NCBI GenBank assembly: GCA_015232575.1
Contig: JADFZL010000003.1
Coordinates: 1-64,000 of the forward strand
Reading direction: 5' to 3'
Source: Candidatus Rifleibacteriota bacterium
Lineage (GTDB): Bacteria > Muiribacteriota > Ozemobacteria > Ozemobacterales > Ozemobacteraceae
Length of the DNA stretch: 64,000 nucleotides
Shown here: piece by piece, positions 3,788 to 56,080 of the stretch
How the letters are laid out: every line of letters begins with the position of its first letter
Position numbering within the stretch: position 1 is the first letter of the stretch
Notes under the pieces: model-generated
The model's input: the letters and a program-made list of their open reading frames with translations, nothing else
Told to the model about the DNA's origin: nothing
Database searches by the model: none
Made by a program: the position numbers and the translations under genes

Positions 3788-4108
3788 ATGACAACGTTTC
3801 TTGCAGCACTTGATAAATACTTGATACAGCAGTTTTTAAACAATACACCATCATTAATTTTGCTCATGATAGCAGTTATTTGTCTCGCTGTTATTGTGAC
3901 TATGCGGGTAAACAAGGCTATCAACAAAGAAGGCGAACAAAACAGCAGAATTGAAATCGTTGAGAAACAGCAGCATAAATCAGAACAGGTTATTTCGGCC
4001 TGTCCATGCATAAGTAAAGAAAATGCAACATGGCTGCAAGATAAAGAAAGAAATGGCGGAAAGCCACCGGAAGCGGTGAAATGTCCATTTCAGAAAGGAA
4101 CTGCATGA
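3788..4108 (+). CDS. putative holin (single TM helix, charged C-terminus)
   Basis: 106 aa with one TM helix (LILLMIAVICLAVIVTM). The stop overlaps the ATG of the endolysin (ATGA at 4105-4108). Confidence 0.3.
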   Translation: MTTFLAALDKYLIQQFLNNTPSLILLMIAVICLAVIVTMRVNKAINKEGEQNSRIEIVEKQQHKSEQVISACPCISKENATWLQDKERNGGKPPEAVKCPFQKGTA

Positions 4109-4548
4109 AATCAAAACATTTCAGACTTGAAGAGTTTTTCAGTAAAGATTTTTTCAATAAATGGCACAAAAAGCCAAATTACCTATGGGGATTGTTGGAT
4201 TCAAGATTGCTTATTTCGTGTGAAAGATTGCGCGAAAGATACGGTGTCTGCAAAATTAATGATTGGATTTTTGGCGGTCACTTCAAAGCATCTGGGTTCA
4301 GAGAAGACGAATGCCGTATTGGTGCTGAATTGTCACAACATAGATTCGGGAGAGCTGCGGATCTGAAATTTGAAGGTGTTACTCCGGAAGAAATCAGAAA
4401 AGACATGCGCAAGAAAGCTTCAATGAATCCTGATATGACAACATTTCAACTTATAACTTGCGTTGAAGATGGAACTGATACCTGGCTTCATATAGACGTA
4501 AGAAACCATGACTGCGATGGTATTCTCTGGATTCCGAAAACTAAGTAA
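4105..4548 (+). CDS. endolysin, peptidase M15A (D-Ala-D-Ala carboxypeptidase/L-alanyl-D-glutamate peptidase-like)
   Basis: FRLEEF...SGFR...HRFGRAADL...WLHID matches the zinc-binding H-x6-D...H motif set of the M15/VanY-type phage lysins. The start is chosen at 4105, coupled to the holin. Confidence 0.6.
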   Translation: MKSKHFRLEEFFSKDFFNKWHKKPNYLWGLLDSRLLISCERLRERYGVCKINDWIFGGHFKASGFREDECRIGAELSQHRFGRAADLKFEGVTPEEIRKDMRKKASMNPDMTTFQLITCVEDGTDTWLHIDVRNHDCDGILWIPKTK

Positions 4549-4563
4549 AAAAAAGGAGGCAGT

Positions 4564-4995
4564 ATGCAGGAAATTCTTAATGAAGTAATAAAGGTTGTAA
4601 TAATCGTTATGATTCCAATTGTAGGTAAAATTCTTAACATTCTTGTTGGGAAACTTATTGAATGGGTTGAAAGCAAAACCCACAATGAAAATCTGAAAAC
4701 CCTCGAACATGAAGCAGGTGAGGTTATTCTTGCCGTCGAAGGAAATATTGTATCAGGAGCAAGAAAAGCGTTTTCTGATGGTAAGATAACTCAGCAGGAA
4801 CTTGAAGACATTTACATTGACGCGAAGCATATTGCGACAAATCAAATTAAAGAAAGACTTAAAACTTTTCCGGGGATTTTTGCTGCAAGTGTCGAAGGCA
4901 AACTAACCGATCTGGTTGAAGCTCAGCTAATTAAGCAGAAAACAATTGGAGCAATCGTAAACCCTCGGCCAGCCCAGTCATCACCGGCAGCATAA
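4564..4995 (+). CDS. membrane-anchored coiled-coil protein of the lysis cassette (spanin- or holin-like)
   Basis: N-terminal TM helix (VIKVVIIVMIPIVGKILNILVG) followed by a helical, charged periplasmic region. Its position directly after the endolysin is typical of i-spanins. Confidence 0.25.
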   Translation: MQEILNEVIKVVIIVMIPIVGKILNILVGKLIEWVESKTHNENLKTLEHEAGEVILAVEGNIVSGARKAFSDGKITQQELEDIYIDAKHIATNQIKERLKTFPGIFAASVEGKLTDLVEAQLIKQKTIGAIVNPRPAQSSPAA

Positions 4996-5255: not shown

Positions 5256-5329
5256 TGCGCCTATCTGGACTCGAACCAGAGGCCCCAGGATTAGGAATCC
5301 TGTGCTCTATCCACCTGAGCTATAGGCGC
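5256..5329 (-). tRNA. tRNA-Arg (anticodon CCT)
   Basis: Minus-strand read: GCGCCTA-TA-GCTCAGGTGGATAGAGC-A-CAGGA-TTCCTAA-TCCTG-GGGCC-TCTGGTTCGAGTCCAGA-TAGGCGC-A. It has a 7-bp acceptor stem, D arm, anticodon loop UU-CCU-AA and T-loop GTTCGAGTC. No CCA is encoded. Confidence 0.85.
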
Positions 5330-10832: not shown

Positions 10833-11183
10833 ACAATTACTTTCTCCTTGTTTGATTCTAATAAGTTAAATCATTTCCATTAGATACGAAGAAAATCAGC
10901 GATTTGTTCCAGAAAAATTTCTAAAATTAATTCAATTACTATGGAAAAACCTGCTGAATCTCTTTCCAGAAAAGAGATTTATGCTTCTTCAATGATTTCC
11001 TGTAATTGGAAAAATAATAATCCATATTAAACAAATGCCTCAAAATCTTATGAAAACTCACTTTTTCTCAGAAGTGTAAAATATGTATTTGCATATTATC
11101 AGAGTTTGTGATATTTTCTTCAGTCATCTTTGCTGATAACACTGAAAAATGAAAATAAACCAGGTAGAAAAAGGCAGAATCTG

Positions 11184-12731
11184 ATGTTTAAATCTGAACT
11201 ACAAGCCAAAATAAATGAATTATTTGATAATGGTGAATTTTCCGCTCAAGTTGAAGTTGAATCTCGCCGATGGTTCTCAAGGATGTTGAAATACTTCAGA
11301 CAAAGCAAGGAGGCAGGTGCCGCAGCTATGAACCATGACAACGGGATTCACTTTATCGGAATTGGTGGTATCGGGATGAGCGGTTTAGCTCAGATCCTTA
11401 TTGAAAAAGGATTTGCCGTATCCGGTTCTGATATCCGGGAAAACGCACAGACAAGAAAACTTGCTGCAATGGGAGCAGAAATTTATTTCGGTCACAGTAG
11501 TCAATGCCTGCCTGAAAGCGTGAAAAGGGTAGTTGTTTCTACAGCAATAGAAAGTGATAATGTTGAGCTTCAAGAAGCGCGCAGAAGAAATCTGGCTATA
11601 TTTCACAGATCTGATCTTCTTGCAGAATTATTTAATAATTTAAAATTCGGAATCGCAGTGAGTGGTTGCCACGGAAAAACTACTGTTACTTCGATTCTTT
11701 CAACTATCTTTTCCGAATCTGCAATGGACCCAACCTGCGTTGTTGGCGGGAATGTCCAGGCTCTTCAGGGGAATGCACGCAACGGACATTCTGAATATCT
11801 TATCGCCGAAGCAGATGAAAGCGATGCGACATTTTTAAAATATTTTCCACATACATCTATTATTACAAACATAGACAATGATCACATGGATCACTACTCA
11901 AGCCTGGACGCAATTGTAAAGGCTTTTGAGGTTTTTGCAAGTCACAATGATCCGGATGGCAGTATTTTTATCTGCCAGGATGATCCCATCGTCAGAAACA
12001 TTGCCCTTCCAGAAGATAGAAGAATTGTAACTTATGGAATTGATAATCCGGCTGATTATATGGCTGAAGATATTAAGCTTTTTCCATTCGGTTCATTTTT
12101 TCGCCTGAAAATCGGTGGAGTTGACAAAGGTATGTTGGAGCTTGCTCTTCCGGGAAAGCACAATGTTCTCAATGCACTTCCCGCCGTAGCAATAGCCCTG
12201 GAAGCAGGAATTTCCTTAGATCAGATACAGGACGCATTGAAAAAATTTCATGGCGCTGGCAGACGATTTGAATTAAAGGGAAATTTCCACGGAATAACAG
12301 TAATTGATGATTACGGTCATCATCCAAATGAAATCCGTGCAACACTTGCTGCAGCAAAATCACTGGCAGCAAAAAGAGTAATGGTTGTTTTTCAACCTCA
12401 CAGATACACTAGAACTCAATTACTTTGCAGCGAATTTGGAAGATGTTTTGAAGACTGTGACAGACTTTTCCTGACTGATATTTATCCGGCTTCTGAAAAG
12501 GCAATTGAAGGTGTCTCCAGCAAATTGATTCTCGACCACATGCCAGTTGCACAACGCAGAAAAGTGAAAATGGTTAAGTCTACAAATGAAGCTCTCTATC
12601 AATTAATGGAAACTCTTGAAGATGGTGATGTCGTTTTCACACTTGGCGCCGGAGATGTTACTCAACTTGGTCCGGTTCTCATTGATGCAATGAAAAGCAG
12701 ATCTGAGCTTTCTGCAGCACGTGCTGTATAA
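11184..12731 (+). CDS. murC: UDP-N-acetylmuramate--L-alanine ligase
   Basis: HFIGIGGIGMSGLAQIL...GSD, VSGCHGKTT (P-loop) and DNDHMDHY are Mur ligase motifs. The start is uncertain: a TTG at 11130 and ATGs at 11184 and 11328 (AAGGAGG upstream) are all possible. Confidence 0.8.
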   Translation: MFKSELQAKINELFDNGEFSAQVEVESRRWFSRMLKYFRQSKEAGAAAMNHDNGIHFIGIGGIGMSGLAQILIEKGFAVSGSDIRENAQTRKLAAMGAEIYFGHSSQCLPESVKRVVVSTAIESDNVELQEARRRNLAIFHRSDLLAELFNNLKFGIAVSGCHGKTTVTSILSTIFSESAMDPTCVVGGNVQALQGNARNGHSEYLIAEADESDATFLKYFPHTSIITNIDNDHMDHYSSLDAIVKAFEVFASHNDPDGSIFICQDDPIVRNIALPEDRRIVTYGIDNPADYMAEDIKLFPFGSFFRLKIGGVDKGMLELALPGKHNVLNALPAVAIALEAGISLDQIQDALKKFHGAGRRFELKGNFHGITVIDDYGHHPNEIRATLAAAKSLAAKRVMVVFQPHRYTRTQLLCSEFGRCFEDCDRLFLTDIYPASEKAIEGVSSKLILDHMPVAQRRKVKMVKSTNEALYQLMETLEDGDVVFTLGAGDVTQLGPVLIDAMKSRSELSAARAV

Positions 12732-12786
12732 GGAAGAAAAAGCTATTTACTGAGCATTGATTTATAGAAATTTATATAAAATAAAT

Positions 12787-12820
12787 TCCCCTCGATGACA
12801 TTCGGGGGGAGTTTATTTTA
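12787..12820 (+). terminator. rho-independent terminator after murC
   Basis: TCCCCTCGA-tgacat-TCGGGGGGA hairpin followed by GTTTATTTTAT. Confidence 0.5.
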
Positions 12821-12881
12821 TATATGGCTTTGACATTATCTCATTAAAATGGTATTTTCAAGGCAAATTTCGGAGATGAAT

Positions 12882-14237
12882 ATGAAAAAAATACCAACAA
12901 TTGCAATTATTGGCAGACCTAATGTAGGCAAGTCTTCCCTGTTAAACCGCATTATCGGCAAGAGACATGCTATTGTAGATCCTACACCCGGAGTAACAAG
13001 AGATAGAAACTACGCTTCAGCGGAATGGAACGGAAGAAAGTTCTTTGTCATTGATACAGGAGGCCTTGATCCTGAAAACAAATCTTCCATACAGAAAGCA
13101 ATAACCGAACAGGTTGATTTTTCGCTTGAAGAAGCAGATGCAATGATTCTTCTGGTAGATGCTCAAACTGGACTTCATGACACAGACAAAGAAATTCTTG
13201 ATCTGCTGAGAAAGAGATCCTGTGGCAAAAAGATATATGTTGCCATAAACAAACTTGATAATCCAACACGTGAAGATCAAATTTATGAATTTTATTCACT
13301 TGGAGTTGAGAAGCTTTTCCCGCTTTCTGCTGTTCATGGCCATGGTGTTGCAGATATCATGGATGAAATCGTTGAACAATTTCCCAGGAATCTTTCTGAG
13401 CATGGCTCTGAAGAAGATATTCCATACGAAAGCAGAATCGCAATCGTTGGAAAACCAAACGTAGGTAAATCTTCTCTCTTCAACAAGCTCGTCGGACAGA
13501 ATAGATCGATTGTTGACGACGTTGCTGGCACCACAAGAGACTCTATTAATTTCACAATTGAACGCGAAGGAAAACTTTATCCTTTTGTTGACACAGCAGG
13601 CCTGAGACGACCCGCTAGAAATAAAGATTCCGTAGAACTTTTTTCGGTCTTCAGAACCCTTGAAACGATAAGACGTTCTGATATTGCTGTAATAATGCTT
13701 GATGCTGAAGCAGCTGAAATAACTGAACAGGACAAGAGAATTGTATCAAATATAATTGATGCTGGTTCTGGATGTGCAATAGTCTGGAACAAATGGGATC
13801 TTCCGGAAAAAACGCCTCGACTCTGGGATGAAATTCTCAAGAAGACTCGTCAGGAACTGCCTTTAATCGATTTTGCTCCAGCTATATCGATTTCTGCAAA
13901 AACTGGCAAACGTGTTGATGACCTCTTTGAACTTCTCGACATTATCAGGGAAAATGGTAAAAAGCGTGCATCAATTCAAAGGCTGAACGAAATTCTCTTT
14001 GAGGCTGTAACAATACAACCACCGCCATCATTTCAGGGAAGAGCACTCAGACTTTCAAATTTGAGACAACTTGACGGGCCTGGAATCGTTTTCAAAATAA
14101 ATTGTTCTGAGCCAAAAGGACTGCATTTTTCCTATCAGAGATTTATCATGAATCTTATCAGGAAGGAGTTTGTGTTTGAAGGTTGGCCGATAAGACTTAT
14201 TGTGCATGGTACCGGAAAAGCAAATGTTAAAAAATGA
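12882..14237 (+). CDS. der: ribosome-associated GTPase Der/EngA (two tandem GTPase domains)
   Basis: IAIIGRPNVGKSSLLN and IAIVGKPNVGKSSLFN P-loops, DTGG/DTAG, NKLD/NKWD and a C-terminal KH-like domain. The start is chosen at 12882 (GGAG 6 nt upstream). An in-frame ATG at 12849 is an alternative. Confidence 0.85.
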   Translation: MKKIPTIAIIGRPNVGKSSLLNRIIGKRHAIVDPTPGVTRDRNYASAEWNGRKFFVIDTGGLDPENKSSIQKAITEQVDFSLEEADAMILLVDAQTGLHDTDKEILDLLRKRSCGKKIYVAINKLDNPTREDQIYEFYSLGVEKLFPLSAVHGHGVADIMDEIVEQFPRNLSEHGSEEDIPYESRIAIVGKPNVGKSSLFNKLVGQNRSIVDDVAGTTRDSINFTIEREGKLYPFVDTAGLRRPARNKDSVELFSVFRTLETIRRSDIAVIMLDAEAAEITEQDKRIVSNIIDAGSGCAIVWNKWDLPEKTPRLWDEILKKTRQELPLIDFAPAISISAKTGKRVDDLFELLDIIRENGKKRASIQRLNEILFEAVTIQPPPSFQGRALRLSNLRQLDGPGIVFKINCSEPKGLHFSYQRFIMNLIRKEFVFEGWPIRLIVHGTGKANVKK

Positions 14238-14914
14238 TTTCATTTTCTAATTCGATAATAGCGCTTGTTCTTGGATATTTTCTCGGTTCAATTCCGTCTG
14301 CTCACTGGCTTGCTAAATATTATTACGGAATAAATATTTTTGAGCATGGCAGCGGAAACATGGGAGCAACAAACATTTACAGAGTGCTTGGCAGCAGACC
14401 TTTTGCTATAACTCTGATGCTGGATATAATAAAAGGTTTTCTTGCAGTTTTGTTTATATCCAGGCTTCCTCATCCTGCGGAAATTGATATTCCAATTAAA
14501 ATAATCGCCGGTTCTGCTGCAGTTGCGGGCCACACGCTTTCATTCTGGGTAAATTTCAGAGGCGGAAAAGGCGTTGCAACTGCACTTGGAGTATTTCTCG
14601 GAATAGCACCTATTTCGAGCATTTGTGCAATGTTTGTCTTTCTATTAGTTCTTGTTCCATCGGGATACGTTTCTCTTTCATCAATGGTCTCAGCATCTTC
14701 GATGCCTTTTTTTATCATGTATTTTCATGAAGGCGGAGCTAATTGGTATCTTCCGCTTGCAATATTTTCATCTTTTGTTGCTGTGTTTCTGATAATAAAA
14801 CACAAAAATAACATTATGAAAATTCTATCTGGAAAAGAACTTTCGCTGAGAAACAAACCATCGCCATCTTCCGACCCAGTACCCGACCCGACTGAAAATA
14901 AAATGGTGAAATGA
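14234..14914 (+). CDS. plsY: glycerol-3-phosphate acyltransferase PlsY
   Basis: LGYFLGSIPSAHWLAKYYYGINIFEHGSGNMGATN is typical of the PlsY N-terminus. Multi-pass membrane protein. Its ATG overlaps the der stop. Confidence 0.8.
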   Translation: MISFSNSIIALVLGYFLGSIPSAHWLAKYYYGINIFEHGSGNMGATNIYRVLGSRPFAITLMLDIIKGFLAVLFISRLPHPAEIDIPIKIIAGSAAVAGHTLSFWVNFRGGKGVATALGVFLGIAPISSICAMFVFLLVLVPSGYVSLSSMVSASSMPFFIMYFHEGGANWYLPLAIFSSFVAVFLIIKHKNNIMKILSGKELSLRNKPSPSSDPVPDPTENKMVK

Positions 14915-14949: not shown

Positions 14950-15195
14950 TGGGAAGGGCACGAGCCCCTTCTAAAGAAAGCGTATCTTAATGCGGCGAAG
15001 CGGAGAGTGCAAAGCACTCGACCGCGGGGAGTGAGGTGGTCGAACTTGTTCGACCGCCGAGAGGGGGCGCGTGCCCCCTCTAAAAAAAGCATCTTAATGT
15101 GGCGAAGCGGAGAGTGCAAAGCACTCGACCGCGGGGAGTGAGGTGGTCGAACTTGTTCGACCGCCGAGAGGGGGCGCGTGCCCCCTCTAAAAATG
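14950..15195 (+). repeat. tandem 107-bp structured intergenic repeat: two full copies (14983-15088, 15090-15195) plus a degenerate partial copy (14950-14982)
   Basis: Unit: atcttaatgYggcgaagcggagaGTGCaaaGCACtcgaccgcggggagtgaggtGGTCGAACttGTTCGACCgccgaGAGGGGGCgcgtGCCCCCTCtaaaaa. It contains three inverted repeats. It lies between plsY and gpsA and supplies the gpsA SD. Confidence 0.85.
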
Positions 15196-15203
15196 AGGTT
15201 TTT

Positions 15204-16217
15204 ATGAAATTTTCGGTTATTGGGGCTGGTGCCTGGGGAACGACTCTTGCGAATATTCTGGCTGAAAATGGCAACAAAGTAATATTATGGGCAAGGGAAC
15301 CCGAAATTGAACAGTCAGTAAACAATCATCATAGAAATTGTATTTTCTTACGTGAAAAAGTATTGCATTCAGATCTTTTTGCCACAACATCAATAAAAGA
15401 TGCTGTTAATTCATCGGAAATACTTGTTTTCGCTGTTCCTTCTGCTCATTTGAGAAATGTTGCCACTGATTGTCTCAAGCATGTAAATTCATCACTGAAA
15501 GGTGTAATGAATGCAGCAAAAGGTCTTGAACCAGTCTCAGGAAAAAGACTTTCAGAAATTCTCTGTGAAATTATGAATGTTCGAGAATCATCATCAGAAG
15601 ATCGAATTGCAGTTCTGTCTGGTCCGAATCTTGCGCCTGAAATTGCATCGGAAAAAATTGCATCTACAGTTATCGCTTCTCCGTGCAGCGATTTAAGTAG
15701 AATTCTTCAGGAAAGCTTTTCTTCTCCCAGGTTCAGAGTTTACCGTCATTCAGACAGAACAGGTGTTGAACTTGGTGGCACACTGAAAAATGTTTTTGCG
15801 ATTGGTGCAGGAATTCTTGAGGGACTTGAACTGGGAGATAATGCAAGAGCGGCATATTTAACGCGTTCACTTCATGAAATGACAAGACTTGGCGTTTGTC
15901 TGGGTGGAAAAAATACAACTTTTTACGGTTTAAGTGGACTTGGTGATCTTATGGCAACAGCAATGTCGCCTATTTCAAGAAATCATAGAATTGGGAGAGC
16001 GATTGCAGAAGGCAGATTGTCGCAATTTCAGAGTGATTTTGCACTCCAGGCAGTCGAAGGAGTTGAAACAGCAAGAATGGCGCTTGAATGGGGAAAAAAA
16101 CTAACTATTCAACTTCCAATTACCGAAGAAATATGCAGGGTACTTTTTGAAAACAAACCTCCCGTCGAAGCTGCGCGTGATTTAATGACACGCTCACTGA
16201 AAGATGAGGGGGAATGA
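15204..16217 (+). CDS. gpsA: NAD(P)H-dependent glycerol-3-phosphate dehydrogenase
   Basis: MKFSVIGAGAWGTTLA Rossmann motif, and GTLKNVFAIGAGI and GLSGLGDL motifs. The true start is at 15204 (GAGG SD). The ORF-track extension from 15099 is read-through of the repeat. Confidence 0.85.
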   Translation: MKFSVIGAGAWGTTLANILAENGNKVILWAREPEIEQSVNNHHRNCIFLREKVLHSDLFATTSIKDAVNSSEILVFAVPSAHLRNVATDCLKHVNSSLKGVMNAAKGLEPVSGKRLSEILCEIMNVRESSSEDRIAVLSGPNLAPEIASEKIASTVIASPCSDLSRILQESFSSPRFRVYRHSDRTGVELGGTLKNVFAIGAGILEGLELGDNARAAYLTRSLHEMTRLGVCLGGKNTTFYGLSGLGDLMATAMSPISRNHRIGRAIAEGRLSQFQSDFALQAVEGVETARMALEWGKKLTIQLPITEEICRVLFENKPPVEAARDLMTRSLKDEGE

Positions 16218-33188: not shown

Positions 33189-33590
33189 AAGCAGGGTGGT
33201 TGGATGGTCGCGCCTGTCTTCAGTAATGTTTGGCAGGTGAGGAAAGTCCGGGCTCCACAGGGCAAGGGCGCTGGATAACGTCCAGGCTTCGTAAGGGAAA
33301 CCTTGCGGGGACGGAGAGTGCAACAGAAAATATACCGCCTGTTGTCTGCAGCAATGCAGATATCAGGTAAGGGTGAAATGGTGCGGCAAGAGCGCACCGG
33401 GTTATCAGTGATGATATACCCTGGAAAACCCCGCCTGGAGCAAGATCAAACAGGGGGAGGGGTAGCCCGCCCCGTTAAATTGAAAACCCCGGGATGGTCG
33501 CTTGAGGTTGCAGGTAACTGCAGTCCCAGACAGATGACCGTCGCCTCTCACGAGGAACAGAACCCGGCTTACAGGCCACTCTGCTTATTT
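33189..33590 (+). ncRNA. rnpB: RNase P RNA, bacterial type A
   Basis: It contains GGTGAGGAAAGTCCGGGCTCC (P4 5' strand), AGGGTGAAATGGTGCGG (P10/11-12 region) and ACAGAACCCGGCTTA (P4 3' strand). The P1 strand AAGCAGGGTGG pairs with CCACTCTGCTT at the 3' end. Confidence 0.85.
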
Positions 33591-36629: not shown

Positions 36630-36713
36630 GCCGGGGTGGTGAAATTGGCAAACACGTAAGATTCAGGATCTTATGCCCTCACGGGTTTAGGGGTTCAAGT
36701 CCCCTCCTCGGCA
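36630..36713 (+). tRNA. tRNA-Leu (anticodon CAG), class II with long variable arm
   Basis: GCCGGGG-TG-GTGAAATTGGCAAACAC-G-TAAGA-TTCAGGA-TCTTA-TGCCCTCACGGGTTT-AGGGGTTCAAGTCCCCT-CCTCGGC-A. It closely parallels E. coli tRNA-Leu(CAG). Confidence 0.85.
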
Positions 36714-53575: not shown

Positions 53576-56080
53576 ATGAACCACCAATGGTTTCAAGGAG
53601 GAAGTGACTTATTCATGAACAAGCCAGAAGAAGGTATTTCGCAGCCGCCATCGCATTCGACATTCCAGGAATCACGTTCGGTATATCCACTTTTGCCGCT
53701 TAGAGATGTCGTGGTTTTTCCATTTATGGTGGTTCCGCTGTTTGTTGGACGGAAAAAGTCTATTCGTTCGATAGAAGAGGCAATGTTGCGTGATCGCAAG
53801 ATTGTTCTCTGTGCACAGAAACAGGCAAAAACGGATGATCCTGACGTCACCGAACTTTATGAAACCGGTACAATCGCTGAAATACTTCAGCTGCTCAAAC
53901 TGCCCGATGGAATACTGAAAATTCTGGTTGAAGGTACCACCAGAGTTAAAATTACCAAGTTTGGGAAAAGAGAAGACTTCTTTGAAGGCGAAACAGAAGA
54001 AGTAACTGCGACTGACGAAAAGAGCATTGAAACTCAGGCTCTTATGAGAAATGTCATAGGATTTTTTGAACAGTACATTAAATTAAATAAGAAAATTCCT
54101 CTCGAAGTAATAATGGTAGCAAATAATGTTGAAGAACCAGGTCGTCTTGCTGACATTATTACTGCTCACCTGACTTTGAAAGTTGAAGAAAAACAGGAAA
54201 TTCTTGAAGCATTTGATCCAAAAGCAAGACTGAACAAGATTGCAAGCATTCTCAATCGTGAACTTGAAATAATGATGGTTGAGAAAAAGATTCGCGGCCA
54301 GGTTCGCAAGCAGATGGAGCAGATACAGAAAGAGTATTACCTTCGCGAGCAGATGAAAGCCATTCAAAAGGAACTTGGCGAAGGTGAAGATAGAATTGAA
54401 GAAATGGAAGAGCTTAAAAAGGCTATTGCAAAAGCAAAAATGCCTGAAGAAGCTCGTGAAAAAGCTGAAAAAGAGTTGTCTAAATTAAGTAAAATGCCGC
54501 CGGGTTCAGCAGAAGCGACCGTGTCAAGAAATTATGTTGACTGGCTTATTTCGCTGCCATGGGCGAAATCCACCAAAGATAAAATTGAAATTGACAAGGC
54601 AGAAATCATTCTTGATGAAGATCATTATGGTTTGAAAAAAGTCAAAGAGAGAATTCTTGAGTTTCTTGCTGTCTGCAAGCTCAAAAAATCACTGAAAGGA
54701 CCAATTCTTTGTCTAATTGGGCCTCCCGGTGTAGGTAAAACATCTCTCGGACGTTCTATCGCACGTTCCATGAATAGAAAATTCGCCCGTATTTCTCTCG
54801 GTGGAATGCGTGATGAAGCTGAAATACGAGGACACAGAAGAACATATATCGGTGCTTTGCCAGGTCGAATTATTCAGGCTTTGAGAGATTGTGGAACAAG
54901 AAATCCGGTTATTCTTCTTGATGAAATTGATAAAATGGGAAATGATTTCAGAGGCGATCCGGGTTCTGCATTGCTTGAGGTTCTTGATCCAGAACAAAAC
55001 TCAACATTTTCAGATCATTTCATTGCAACTCCGTTTGATTTATCAAAAGTTCTTTTTCTGACAACTGCAAATGTTCCGCACAGTATTCCGCCGGCTTTGA
55101 AAGATCGTCTGGAAATTGTTTTCCTGCCAGGGTATACAGAAGAAGAAAAAGTTGAAATTGCAAAAAGATATCTTCTTCCCAAGCAGAAGGAAGCCAATGG
55201 AATAGATAAAAATAAAATCGTGTTTGAAGATGAAAGTGTTCGTCAGATCATCAGACAATATACAAGAGAATCCGGCGTCAGAAGTCTTGAACGTGAAATC
55301 GCTGCAGTAAGCCGGAAAATTGCGCGCAAACTTATTTCCGTAAGCAAACCTTCTGCAGAAGAAATTTCTGTTACTCCAGAGTCTCTGAAGGGCTATCTTG
55401 GAGTTGCCAAATTTCATTCAGATAAGAAGGAAGAAAAACACGAAATTGGAATTGCCACCGGACTTGCCTGGACAGAGGTTGGAGGAGCTATTCTTCCGAT
55501 TGAAGTCGTTATTATGCCAGGGCGCGGAAAAATTACGCTCACTGGAAGCCTGGGAAATGTAATGAAAGAATCAGCAATGGCTGGAATTTCATATCTTCGT
55601 TCTCATGCTGAAGAATTGAGAATGCGTCCGATTAATTATGATAAAATTGATCTGCATATTCATTTCCCTGAAGGCGGAGTTCCGAAAGATGGTCCGTCAG
55701 CAGGTATTACAATTGCTACTGCAATTTATTCTGCATTGAACGAAGTTCCTATCAACAAAGATTTTGCAATGACCGGAGAAATTACACTCAGAGGAAAGGT
55801 TTTGCCCGTTGGTGGAATAAAAGAGAAACTTCTGGCAGCGCACAGACATGGAATTACAAATATTATTCTTTCGGTTGATAACGAGAAAGACCTTGAGGAA
55901 ATTCCGGAAGAAATTAGAAATAATCTGACCATAAGTAAAGTCAGGAATGCCTCTGAGGTTCTTAAACTAGCTCTGGTTGGTGAACCAAAGCAGACCCCGC
56001 TTGTACTGAAGGGGTATACAGAAAAGAAAAAAAACGATAAAGATATGTCGTCAGAAAAGGATTCAGAAGATGACGCTTAA
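53576..56080 (+). CDS. lon: ATP-dependent Lon protease
   Basis: Lon N-domain (LPLLPLRDVVVFPFMVVPLFVGR), AAA+ P-loop GPPGVGKTSLGRSIA, and the protease motif DGPSAGITIATA (Ser) with catalytic Lys downstream. Confidence 0.9.
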   Translation: MNHQWFQGGSDLFMNKPEEGISQPPSHSTFQESRSVYPLLPLRDVVVFPFMVVPLFVGRKKSIRSIEEAMLRDRKIVLCAQKQAKTDDPDVTELYETGTIAEILQLLKLPDGILKILVEGTTRVKITKFGKREDFFEGETEEVTATDEKSIETQALMRNVIGFFEQYIKLNKKIPLEVIMVANNVEEPGRLADIITAHLTLKVEEKQEILEAFDPKARLNKIASILNRELEIMMVEKKIRGQVRKQMEQIQKEYYLREQMKAIQKELGEGEDRIEEMEELKKAIAKAKMPEEAREKAEKELSKLSKMPPGSAEATVSRNYVDWLISLPWAKSTKDKIEIDKAEIILDEDHYGLKKVKERILEFLAVCKLKKSLKGPILCLIGPPGVGKTSLGRSIARSMNRKFARISLGGMRDEAEIRGHRRTYIGALPGRIIQALRDCGTRNPVILLDEIDKMGNDFRGDPGSALLEVLDPEQNSTFSDHFIATPFDLSKVLFLTTANVPHSIPPALKDRLEIVFLPGYTEEEKVEIAKRYLLPKQKEANGIDKNKIVFEDESVRQIIRQYTRESGVRSLEREIAAVSRKIARKLISVSKPSAEEISVTPESLKGYLGVAKFHSDKKEEKHEIGIATGLAWTEVGGAILPIEVVIMPGRGKITLTGSLGNVMKESAMAGISYLRSHAEELRMRPINYDKIDLHIHFPEGGVPKDGPSAGITIATAIYSALNEVPINKDFAMTGEITLRGKVLPVGGIKEKLLAAHRHGITNIILSVDNEKDLEEIPEEIRNNLTISKVRNASEVLKLALVGEPKQTPLVLKGYTEKKKNDKDMSSEKDSEDDA

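Follow-up and report, generated by a model that had tools for sequence, protein, structure and literature searches.

The window (the whole 64-kb stretch of DNA analyzed here, part of a metagenome-assembled genome, or MAG, whose proteins carry the prefix HQM10) contains plsY (14234–14914; Pfam G3P_acyltransf) followed by gpsA, whose ATG lies at 15204 and whose product is 100% identical to MBF0406711.1 (Pfam NAD_Gly3P_dh). The spacer between the two genes holds a tandem array (14956–15193; Table 1), for which Tandem Repeats Finder (TRF) returned a period of 107 nt, 2.2 copies, 94% matches and a score of 425; the tandem 107-bp unit described there by the first-pass annotation is therefore real. 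The array opens with a diverged, hairpin-3-like partial unit that had been overlooked. The element has a core of about 85–89 nt and measures 107 nt when its 5′ extension is included; a motif TTAATGYG..AGCGG aligned 5′ of all three full window copies. The GC content of the repeat is 66% versus 39% for the window and the genome, and GC-rich islands are otherwise limited, within the window, to the RNase P RNA and a small number of coding stretches. All window copies lie on the + strand. A 15-mer linker motif occurs six times versus 0.04 occurrences expected from shuffled sequence, and a 20-mer from hairpin 3 occurs three times per strand versus none expected. The array units are not identical (C/T at 14993 versus 15100, unlike tails, and a diverged first partial unit), making a trivial assembly duplication unlikely. 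Furthermore, the 107-nt units run head to tail, and the 18–20-nt linker between them is itself repeated, leaving no unique spacers; the array is thus not a CRISPR, as had been noted.

Other structured or repetitive features of the window were recorded separately. The RNase P RNA, of bacterial class A, was located at 33192–33587 (+, 268.6 bits), and tRNA genes at 5256–5329 (−) and 36630–36713 (+). Several tandem-repeat matches between 56720 and 57271 derive from the ~220-aa, Q/N/P-rich low-complexity C-terminal tail of a 421-aa YihA/EngB GTPase homologue (56070–57335). Two AT-rich inverted repeats look like intergenic terminators: one at 23706–23768 (29-nt arms, 86% complementary), which is found where two convergent ORFs end and whose span includes the final 15 nt of the minus-strand ORF, and one at 12773–12824, a short way upstream of der, with 23-nt arms that are 91% complementary.

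We then considered the anatomy of the unit. The three hairpins proposed by the first-pass annotation exist and are larger than it described: hairpin 1 consists of GAGUGC-AAA-GCACUC with an outer GCGG/CCGC stem (the outer stem in the window copies), hairpin 2 of 10–11 bp around GGUCGAAC/GUUCGACC, and hairpin 3 of 9 bp, AGAGGGGGC-GCGU-GCCCCCUCU. They are connected by the purine-rich linkers GGGGAGUGAG and GAGA, which are invariant and Shine-Dalgarno (SD)-like, and an A-run closes the 3′ end. The array fold was calculated at −144 kcal mol−1 (z = −9.8), and a single unit was predicted to form three stem-loops with a stability of 45–55 kcal mol−1 (about −50 kcal mol−1). The + strand folded 3–7 kcal mol−1 better than the − strand because the wobbles are G-U and never A-C, a weak hint from the predicted folds that the + strand may be the folding strand. 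The 3′ arm of hairpin 1 with its linker (CTCGACCGCGGGGAG, 15017–15031) is identical at 13 of 15 positions to the arm and linker of hairpin 2 (TTCGACCGCCGAGAG, 15049–15063), and this likeness is repeated in unit 2; the unit itself may have been born of an internal duplication.

Near 63 kb, the first-pass annotation had reported an additional copy in which GCGC/GCGC replaces GUGC/GCAC, and this copy is present in front of a GT4 glycosyltransferase gene (Table 1). Its tail, AAAAAAGGAGCCGATATG, is found again after a copy termed La on a related contig (see below). Two details had escaped notice here: 2–3 more compensated positions, which lie in the outer stem of hairpin 2, and a degenerate partial copy further upstream, which lacks a stable fold (z = −0.1). 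The divergent spacer that precedes the GT4 gene (62749–63100, 352 nt) also carries a promoter-like TTGAAA-17-TATAAT site on the + strand; if used, this site would put both the partial and the full copy inside a GT4 leader of ~300 nt. On the minus strand, an ORF listed as 62053–62931 has its true start at 62748, with AGGAG 10 nt upstream and a lipobox signal peptide, and so starting it matches the 231-aa NCBI protein HQM10_05305.

Table 1 Features of the repeat copies and their surroundings. Positions refer to the window unless the JGI contig L126 is named; R1 is the covariance model built from the copies.
Feature	Position	Strand	Evidence or detail
Diverged partial unit opening the array: hairpin-3-like stem-loop GAAGGG..CCCTTC and tail TAAAGAAA	14951–14979	+	Direct reading, alignment, TRF array
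Linker / 5′ extension of unit 1, GCGTATCTTAATGCGGCGAA	14980–14999	+	Alignment
Unit 1 core	15000–15088	+	R1 match 14999–15087, 118 bits; pair counts
Unit 1 hairpin 1	15000–15025	+	
Unit 1 invariant linker GGGGAGTGA	15026–15034	+	
Unit 1 hairpin 2	15035–15058	+	
Unit 1 hairpin 3	15060–15081	+	
Unit 1 A-run	15082–15088	+	
Linker / 5′ extension between units 1 and 2, GCATCTTAATGTGGCGAA	15089–15106	+	Direct reading, alignment
Unit 2 core	15107–15193	+	R1 match 15106–15194, 117.4 bits
Unit 2 hairpin 1	15107–15132	+	
Unit 2 hairpin 2	15142–15165	+	
Unit 2 hairpin 3	15167–15188	+	
Unit 2 A-run	15189–15193	+	
gpsA ribosome-binding site GAGG; ATG	15195–15198; 15204–15206	+	Adjoins array, outside aligned core
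Putative promoter site TTGAAA-17-TATAAT	62765–62793	+	Consensus match, 11/12
Degenerate partial copy: hairpin 1 3′ arm, CGACCGCGGAGAG linker, decayed hairpin-3-like segment	62883–62930	+	R1 10.5–10.7 bits
5′ extension of the 63-kb copy, TTAATGCGTAT	62992–63002	+	Alignment
Full copy 3	63003–63091	+	R1 115.8 bits; 92% identical to array unit
Copy 3 hairpin 1	63004–63029	+	GCGC/GCGC variant
Copy 3 hairpin 2	63039–63062	+	Outer stem GAG/CUU variant
Copy 3 hairpin 3	63064–63085	+	
Copy 3 A-run	63086–63091	+	
GGAG; ATG of the GT4 glycosyltransferase gene	63092–63095; 63101–63103	+	
La	L126 4165–4295		Partial unit beginning in hairpin 2 3′ arm, then full unit; period 85 nt
Lb	L126 11160–11259		Hairpin 3 3′ half, then full unit 11171–11259 directly abutting
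ATGs after hairpin 3	14990, 15097, 15204, 63101		
ATGs after hairpin 3, L126	L126 4306, 11283		

We compared five full copies, three from the window and two from L126, in an alignment of 89 columns that represents two near-identical genomes. Across it, 71 of the 89 columns are invariant, and the core (columns 5–83) contains 11 variable columns. Eight of these constitute four base pairs that changed on both sides and still pair: U-A/C-G and G-C/A-U in hairpin 1, and G-C/A-U/U-A and U-G/G-C/C-G in the outer stem of hairpin 2. One further column records a G-C to G-U change, and the last two, both in Lb (the second L126 locus), are a position in the hairpin-1 loop and a position in the outer stem of hairpin 1, which is paired in the window copies alone. 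The proportion of paired cells was 95%, with one cell broken (G-A in La). Covariation was 0.169 versus a shuffled mean of 0.078 (0 of 500 shuffles reached the observed value) and at most 0.052 for slid partners, with n = 5 sequences. Hairpin 3 and the core of hairpin 2 show no variation among the five copies, so they are uninformative on covariation. These results agree with the first-pass claim that the hairpins are kept by compensatory mutations, with four double-changed pairs and covariation above both the shuffled and the slid controls. The accompanying claim of selection on secondary structure was carried by the compensated pairs as far as structure is concerned, but not as proof of selection on RNA, because hairpin-templated repair can yield compensated changes in one step; in perfect DNA palindromes, such changes can arise via quasi-palindrome template switching. 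Invariant linkers combined with mostly compensated stem changes are a pattern seen more typically in a functional RNA than in a selfish repeat undergoing decay.

The two further full copies lie on L126, a JGI contig of 17.3 kb and 42% GC (sample 3300076802) that was assembled independently of the window, and which we reached via a protein-database search with the element translated in all open frames, leading to the spurious ORF P0121. The GH57 product of L126 clusters at ≥90% with HQM10_10060 of the window's own MAG (97% identity across 523 residues, then 89% across the following 88), and by these protein identities L126 comes from a close relative of the window's organism. At La, GH57 homology ends at residue 733 of 875, precisely at the start of the partial element, and the GH57 gene is intact (875 aa) in HQM10; the element therefore sits at a break in the L126 strain of a gene that is unbroken in HQM10, an insertion polymorphism. 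On the other flank of La, a murQ homologue aligns to residues 148–298 of 298, with its first 147 codons missing. The L126 GH57 gene is also frameshifted near codon 645 (3900–3930), and both it and the murQ homologue (4239–4760) look like pseudogenes. The La junction could be a deletion between two insertions or a chimeric metagenome assembly across two element copies; with either origin, element sequence must adjoin both broken genes. Lb has a minus-strand gene on either side and is antisense to both; 5 nt separate its end from the stop codon of a gene for a dockerin/EF-hand protein.

Several regularities emerged from the copies taken together. The five full and four partial copies are all direct, with no inverted pairs. 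Partial copies always retain the 3′ end, and each full copy has a partial copy upstream. Array periods vary, being 107 nt for the window array and 85 nt for La, with 1.15 to 2.2 units per array. The element is found on the G-rich strand of both contigs (GC skew +0.04 and +0.03), which would fit a strand-specific single-strand-DNA mechanism but, at n = 2, carries no weight.

The first-pass annotation held that every full copy has the same, sense orientation and immediately precedes a start codon. At three of the four loci, the element is indeed in sense and right before an SD-ATG, and within the window a start codon is adjoined by the last array unit and the 63-kb copy only. Lb is antisense to both of its neighbours, so a rule of always-sense leaders fails; the start-codon rule also fails at La, which is the junction of two truncated genes and whose ATG opens only a 17-codon ORF, no real gene. 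An ATG is located 15–18 nt past hairpin 3 in 6/8 copies, including copies where no gene starts. The annotation had further proposed that the element donates the ribosome-binding site. GAGG at gpsA and GGAG at the GT4 gene lie outside the aligned 89-nt core, so that this does not hold for the core itself; what stands is that the tails following the core fall into pairs, AAAAAAGGAG-N5-6-ATG being common to the GT4 copy and La, and GTTTTTAT(G/C) to the gpsA copy and the 62.9-kb fragment. The former tail suggests that a translation-initiation context can travel with the element.

Since the element is open in several frames, it gives rise to spurious ORFs and N-terminal extensions. A 372-aa version of gpsA starting from GTG 15099 (15099–16217) is such a spurious extension, and both the JGI 126-aa hypothetical protein P0121 (L126 3911–4291) and the called start of the murQ fragment (L126 4239–4760) are generated by the element. 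Two coding or promoter roles were considered and rejected. A leader peptide is not conserved, because the 5′-extension ATG begins a 14-codon ORF in both array units but a different frame in copy 3; were the TAAAAT of the A-run an outward promoter, the SD sequence could not be accommodated.

We then examined the range of the element. gpsA and six neighbouring window proteins have no second member in their 90%-identity clusters, and the nearest other gpsA genes, on the contigs L119 and L120, are 68% and 64% identical, respectively. The orthologous plsY-gpsA spacers of these two other Riflebacteria are without the element, consisting of 178 nt of unrelated, AT-rich sequence in L119 and of 4 nt in L120, and the linker motif is not in either of the two 21-kb loci. 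The array is therefore not a conserved gpsA leader or attenuator, as the first-pass annotation had considered. With filters off, model R1 found no further copy in the 64-kb window, and at E ≤ 10 it found none in ~143 kb (~115 kb non-redundant) from five other Riflebacteria assemblies. Rfam returned nothing at gathering thresholds, the best match by E-value being Chlorobi-1 with 15.5 bits versus a gathering score of 50. Scanning 185,579 species genomes for AGCRCTCGACCGCGGRGAG gave at least 118 stretches; among the matches listed, none contained the rest of the element, and all were in high-GC genomes, mostly in one conserved Solirubrobacterales gene. The 21-mer AAAGCRCTCGACCGCGGRGAG had 5 matches in metagenome contigs, all in unrelated high-GC sequence; this query is blind to the L126 variants AAAGTGCTCG and AACGTGCTCGAAC, and the invariant GGTCGAACTTGTTCGACC and GAGAGGGGGCGCGTGCCCCCTCT are better queries. 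Viral contigs gave 0 matches for two invariant motifs, plasmids and phages gave no blastn match to the element, and a HMMER search with the minus-strand array translation recovered only three long repetitive proteins, which we took as low-complexity noise. Two closely related Riflebacteria genomes thus share the element, with a minimum of four loci between them, and, judging from the Riflebacteria DNA compared, it appears to be confined to HQM10 and its close relative.

Considering these observations, we favor, with moderate confidence, the interpretation that the element represents a new family of lineage-specific, insertion-polymorphic, GC-rich composite small interspersed repeats and not a dedicated gpsA leader. 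Its class is most likely that of the REP/BIME, BOX, NIME and MITE-like elements. Copies would spread or duplicate by a DNA-level process acting on the hairpins, for which candidates are transposition in trans, e.g., by a single-strand-DNA tyrosine transposase, and hairpin-provoked breakage, slippage and recombination. No terminal inverted repeats, target-site duplication, GTAG or conserved CGTC tag were seen at the four loci, and no transposase was found. Sense copies inside transcripts, as expected for the plsY-gpsA spacer within the row of genes der-plsY-gpsA and for the GT4 leader (the latter depending on use of the promoter-like site at 62765–62793), would place three stable stem-loops just 5′ of the ribosome-binding site. 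There, by analogy with the REP, BIME, ERIC, Correia and BOX repeats, they would most probably serve as a barrier to, or a target for, RNases and as a spacer uncoupling the downstream cistron. The relative expression of plsY versus gpsA, and the expression of the GT4 gene, would then be shifted as a side effect, with no dedicated switch; in general terms, the co-transcribed hairpins probably affect mRNA stability or translation. Since the stems covary and the linkers are invariant, the element may reasonably be viewed as a candidate for recruitment of a repeat to an RNA-level role, which, from four loci, we put forward as a hypothesis.

The strongest competing explanation, which we nevertheless regard as unlikely, is a cis-regulatory RNA, i.e., a protein- or ligand-binding leader 5′ of the ribosome-binding site that would control translation or stability of the envelope genes gpsA and GT4, with tandem units providing cooperativity. 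Such a leader would account for the covariation of hairpins 1 and 2 and the invariance of the single-stranded linkers, for the presence of G-U without A-C pairs together with the better fold of the + strand, for the sense orientation of both window loci abutting an SD-ATG, for the promoter-like site upstream of the GT4 leader, and for the common tail with which an initiation context seems to travel. However, the element is absent from the gpsA leaders of other Riflebacteria and from ~115 kb of their DNA, one L126 copy is antisense and 3′ of a gene while the other is inside broken genes, and partial copies and variable periods are unexpected for a riboswitch-like unit. Rfam offers no match, and compensated changes are also possible by hairpin-templated mutation without RNA selection.

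A further scenario, to which we assign a low probability, joins mobility and regulation: a mobile 5′-UTR cassette, in which a structured RNA with invariant, SD-like linkers carries its own A-run, Shine-Dalgarno sequence and ATG context, so that sense insertion would put the downstream gene under one trans-acting RNA-binding factor or a ribosome-standby mechanism. If this were true, the element would be a transposable post-transcriptional regulon tag, and gpsA and the GT4 gene, both of envelope biosynthesis, would be co-controlled. In a weaker variant, an RNA intermediate could have served in the copying, which would explain copies that are 3′-complete, 5′-truncated and A-rich in the tail.

Termination or attenuation of transcription between plsY and gpsA is, in our assessment, very improbable as the role of the array. 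Very stable GC-rich hairpins between co-oriented genes would be in keeping with such a role, and some BIMEs attenuate transcription (PMC3049150), but neither strand has a U-run behind any hairpin: UAAAAA comes after hairpin 3 on the + strand, the T-run precedes hairpin 3 on the − strand, and terminator scans were empty within the element on both strands. Moreover, a start codon comes immediately after the 63-kb copy, so a terminator at that place would shut off the gene. Finally, an assembly or binning artefact, whether through collapse or duplication of a repeat or through the joining of foreign GC-rich DNA to the MAG, is scarcely credible: the source is a metagenome-assembled genome and the element has 66% GC versus 39% for the genome, but the copies occupy two distant window loci and two loci on a JGI contig that was assembled independently from another sample, the units differ by point substitutions and tails, and each window locus is bordered on both sides by ordinary host genes whose NCBI protein accessions run consecutively.

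If the element is the composite interspersed repeat that we favor, it would be the first small interspersed repeat family for the candidate phylum Riflebacteria; to our knowledge, such repeats have been described almost only from cultured Proteobacteria, Firmicutes and Cyanobacteria. It could be of use as a strain-typing marker, may cause contigs to break or to be joined chimerically when MAGs of the group are assembled, and may also give rise to spurious ORFs.

Several known kinds of structured DNA and RNA were compared with the element. Readings as a group II intron domain V, an integron attC site or a tRNA-like structure were rejected, since the helix geometry or core motifs of these differ from those of the element and Rfam returned no match. 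Riboswitch-like and tandem-aptamer leaders resemble it in that structured units stand in tandem immediately before a ribosome-binding site, their stems covary and their joining regions are conserved; unlike them, the element is not kept at orthologous loci (it is absent at the gpsA genes of L119 and L120), occurs antisense (Lb) and inside broken genes, has truncated copies and belongs to no Rfam family, and conservation of the riboswitch type was thus rejected.

The nature of REP, BIME, ERIC, Correia and BOX repeats, and their effects when co-transcribed, have been described (PMC3049150, PMC3733652). The first-pass suggestion of a REP/MITE-like element proved apt for the class of small interspersed repeats, though not in the strict sense of either term. 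A REP is a single 20–40-bp palindrome with a GTAG or CGTC tag, typically found in inverted pairs, and REPINs are mobilised by RAYT (PMC3733652). Like REP/BIME, the element consists of GC-rich extragenic palindromes with compensated changes, arranged in mosaic clusters, often between co-oriented genes and occasionally inside genes, and plausibly transcribed; REP/BIME affect mRNA stability or attenuation (PMC3733652). In contrast to them, it combines three unlike hairpins in one 85–107-nt unit, and all its copies are direct. GTAG or CTAC is absent from every copy, GACG (the complement of CGTC) occurs in the L126 copies only and is not conserved, and no RAYT gene was seen within 64 kb of genome; a strict REP, BIME or REPIN was rejected on the tags and the three different hairpins.

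MITEs are defined by 15–30-bp terminal inverted repeats and target-site duplications. RUP, Correia/NEMIS and ERIC repeats resemble the element in being 70–300 bp long, non-coding, highly base-paired and located beside or within genes, and they are able to change the expression of their neighbours (PMC3049150, PMC3733652). Unlike MITEs, the element has termini (GAGAG and CCCTCT) that share at most 5 nt, and its only inverted repeats are the three internal hairpins. With terminal inverted repeats absent, a MITE by definition was also rejected. No target duplication is visible; (T)TAATG/TATG, which may belong to the unit, is present on both sides of the window units, and partial copies flank the full copies upstream.

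The closest organizational parallel is BOX of Streptococcus pneumoniae, a composite boxA-boxB(n)-boxC repeat of strong structure that is limited to one species and its nearest relatives, is co-transcribed with its neighbours, occasionally disrupts genes, and differs in insertion sites between strains (PMC3049150). The two are not similar in sequence; BOX has ISSpn2-like terminal inverted repeats, of which none was seen in the element, and the element is GC-rich in an AT-rich genome, with partial copies that are 5′-truncated and not module-deficient. They are alike in measuring less than 200 bp, in having distinct sub-modules of variable tandem number and strong structure, in their narrow lineage, in the occasional disruption of genes and in strain-variable insertion sites. 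The element thus displays a BOX-type composite organization, with three modules, 1.15 to 2.2 units per array, a narrow lineage and strain-variable insertion, and has no homology to BOX. Since the strict REP and MITE tests fail and the organization is common to BOX without its sequence, the comparison points to a new family of a known kind.
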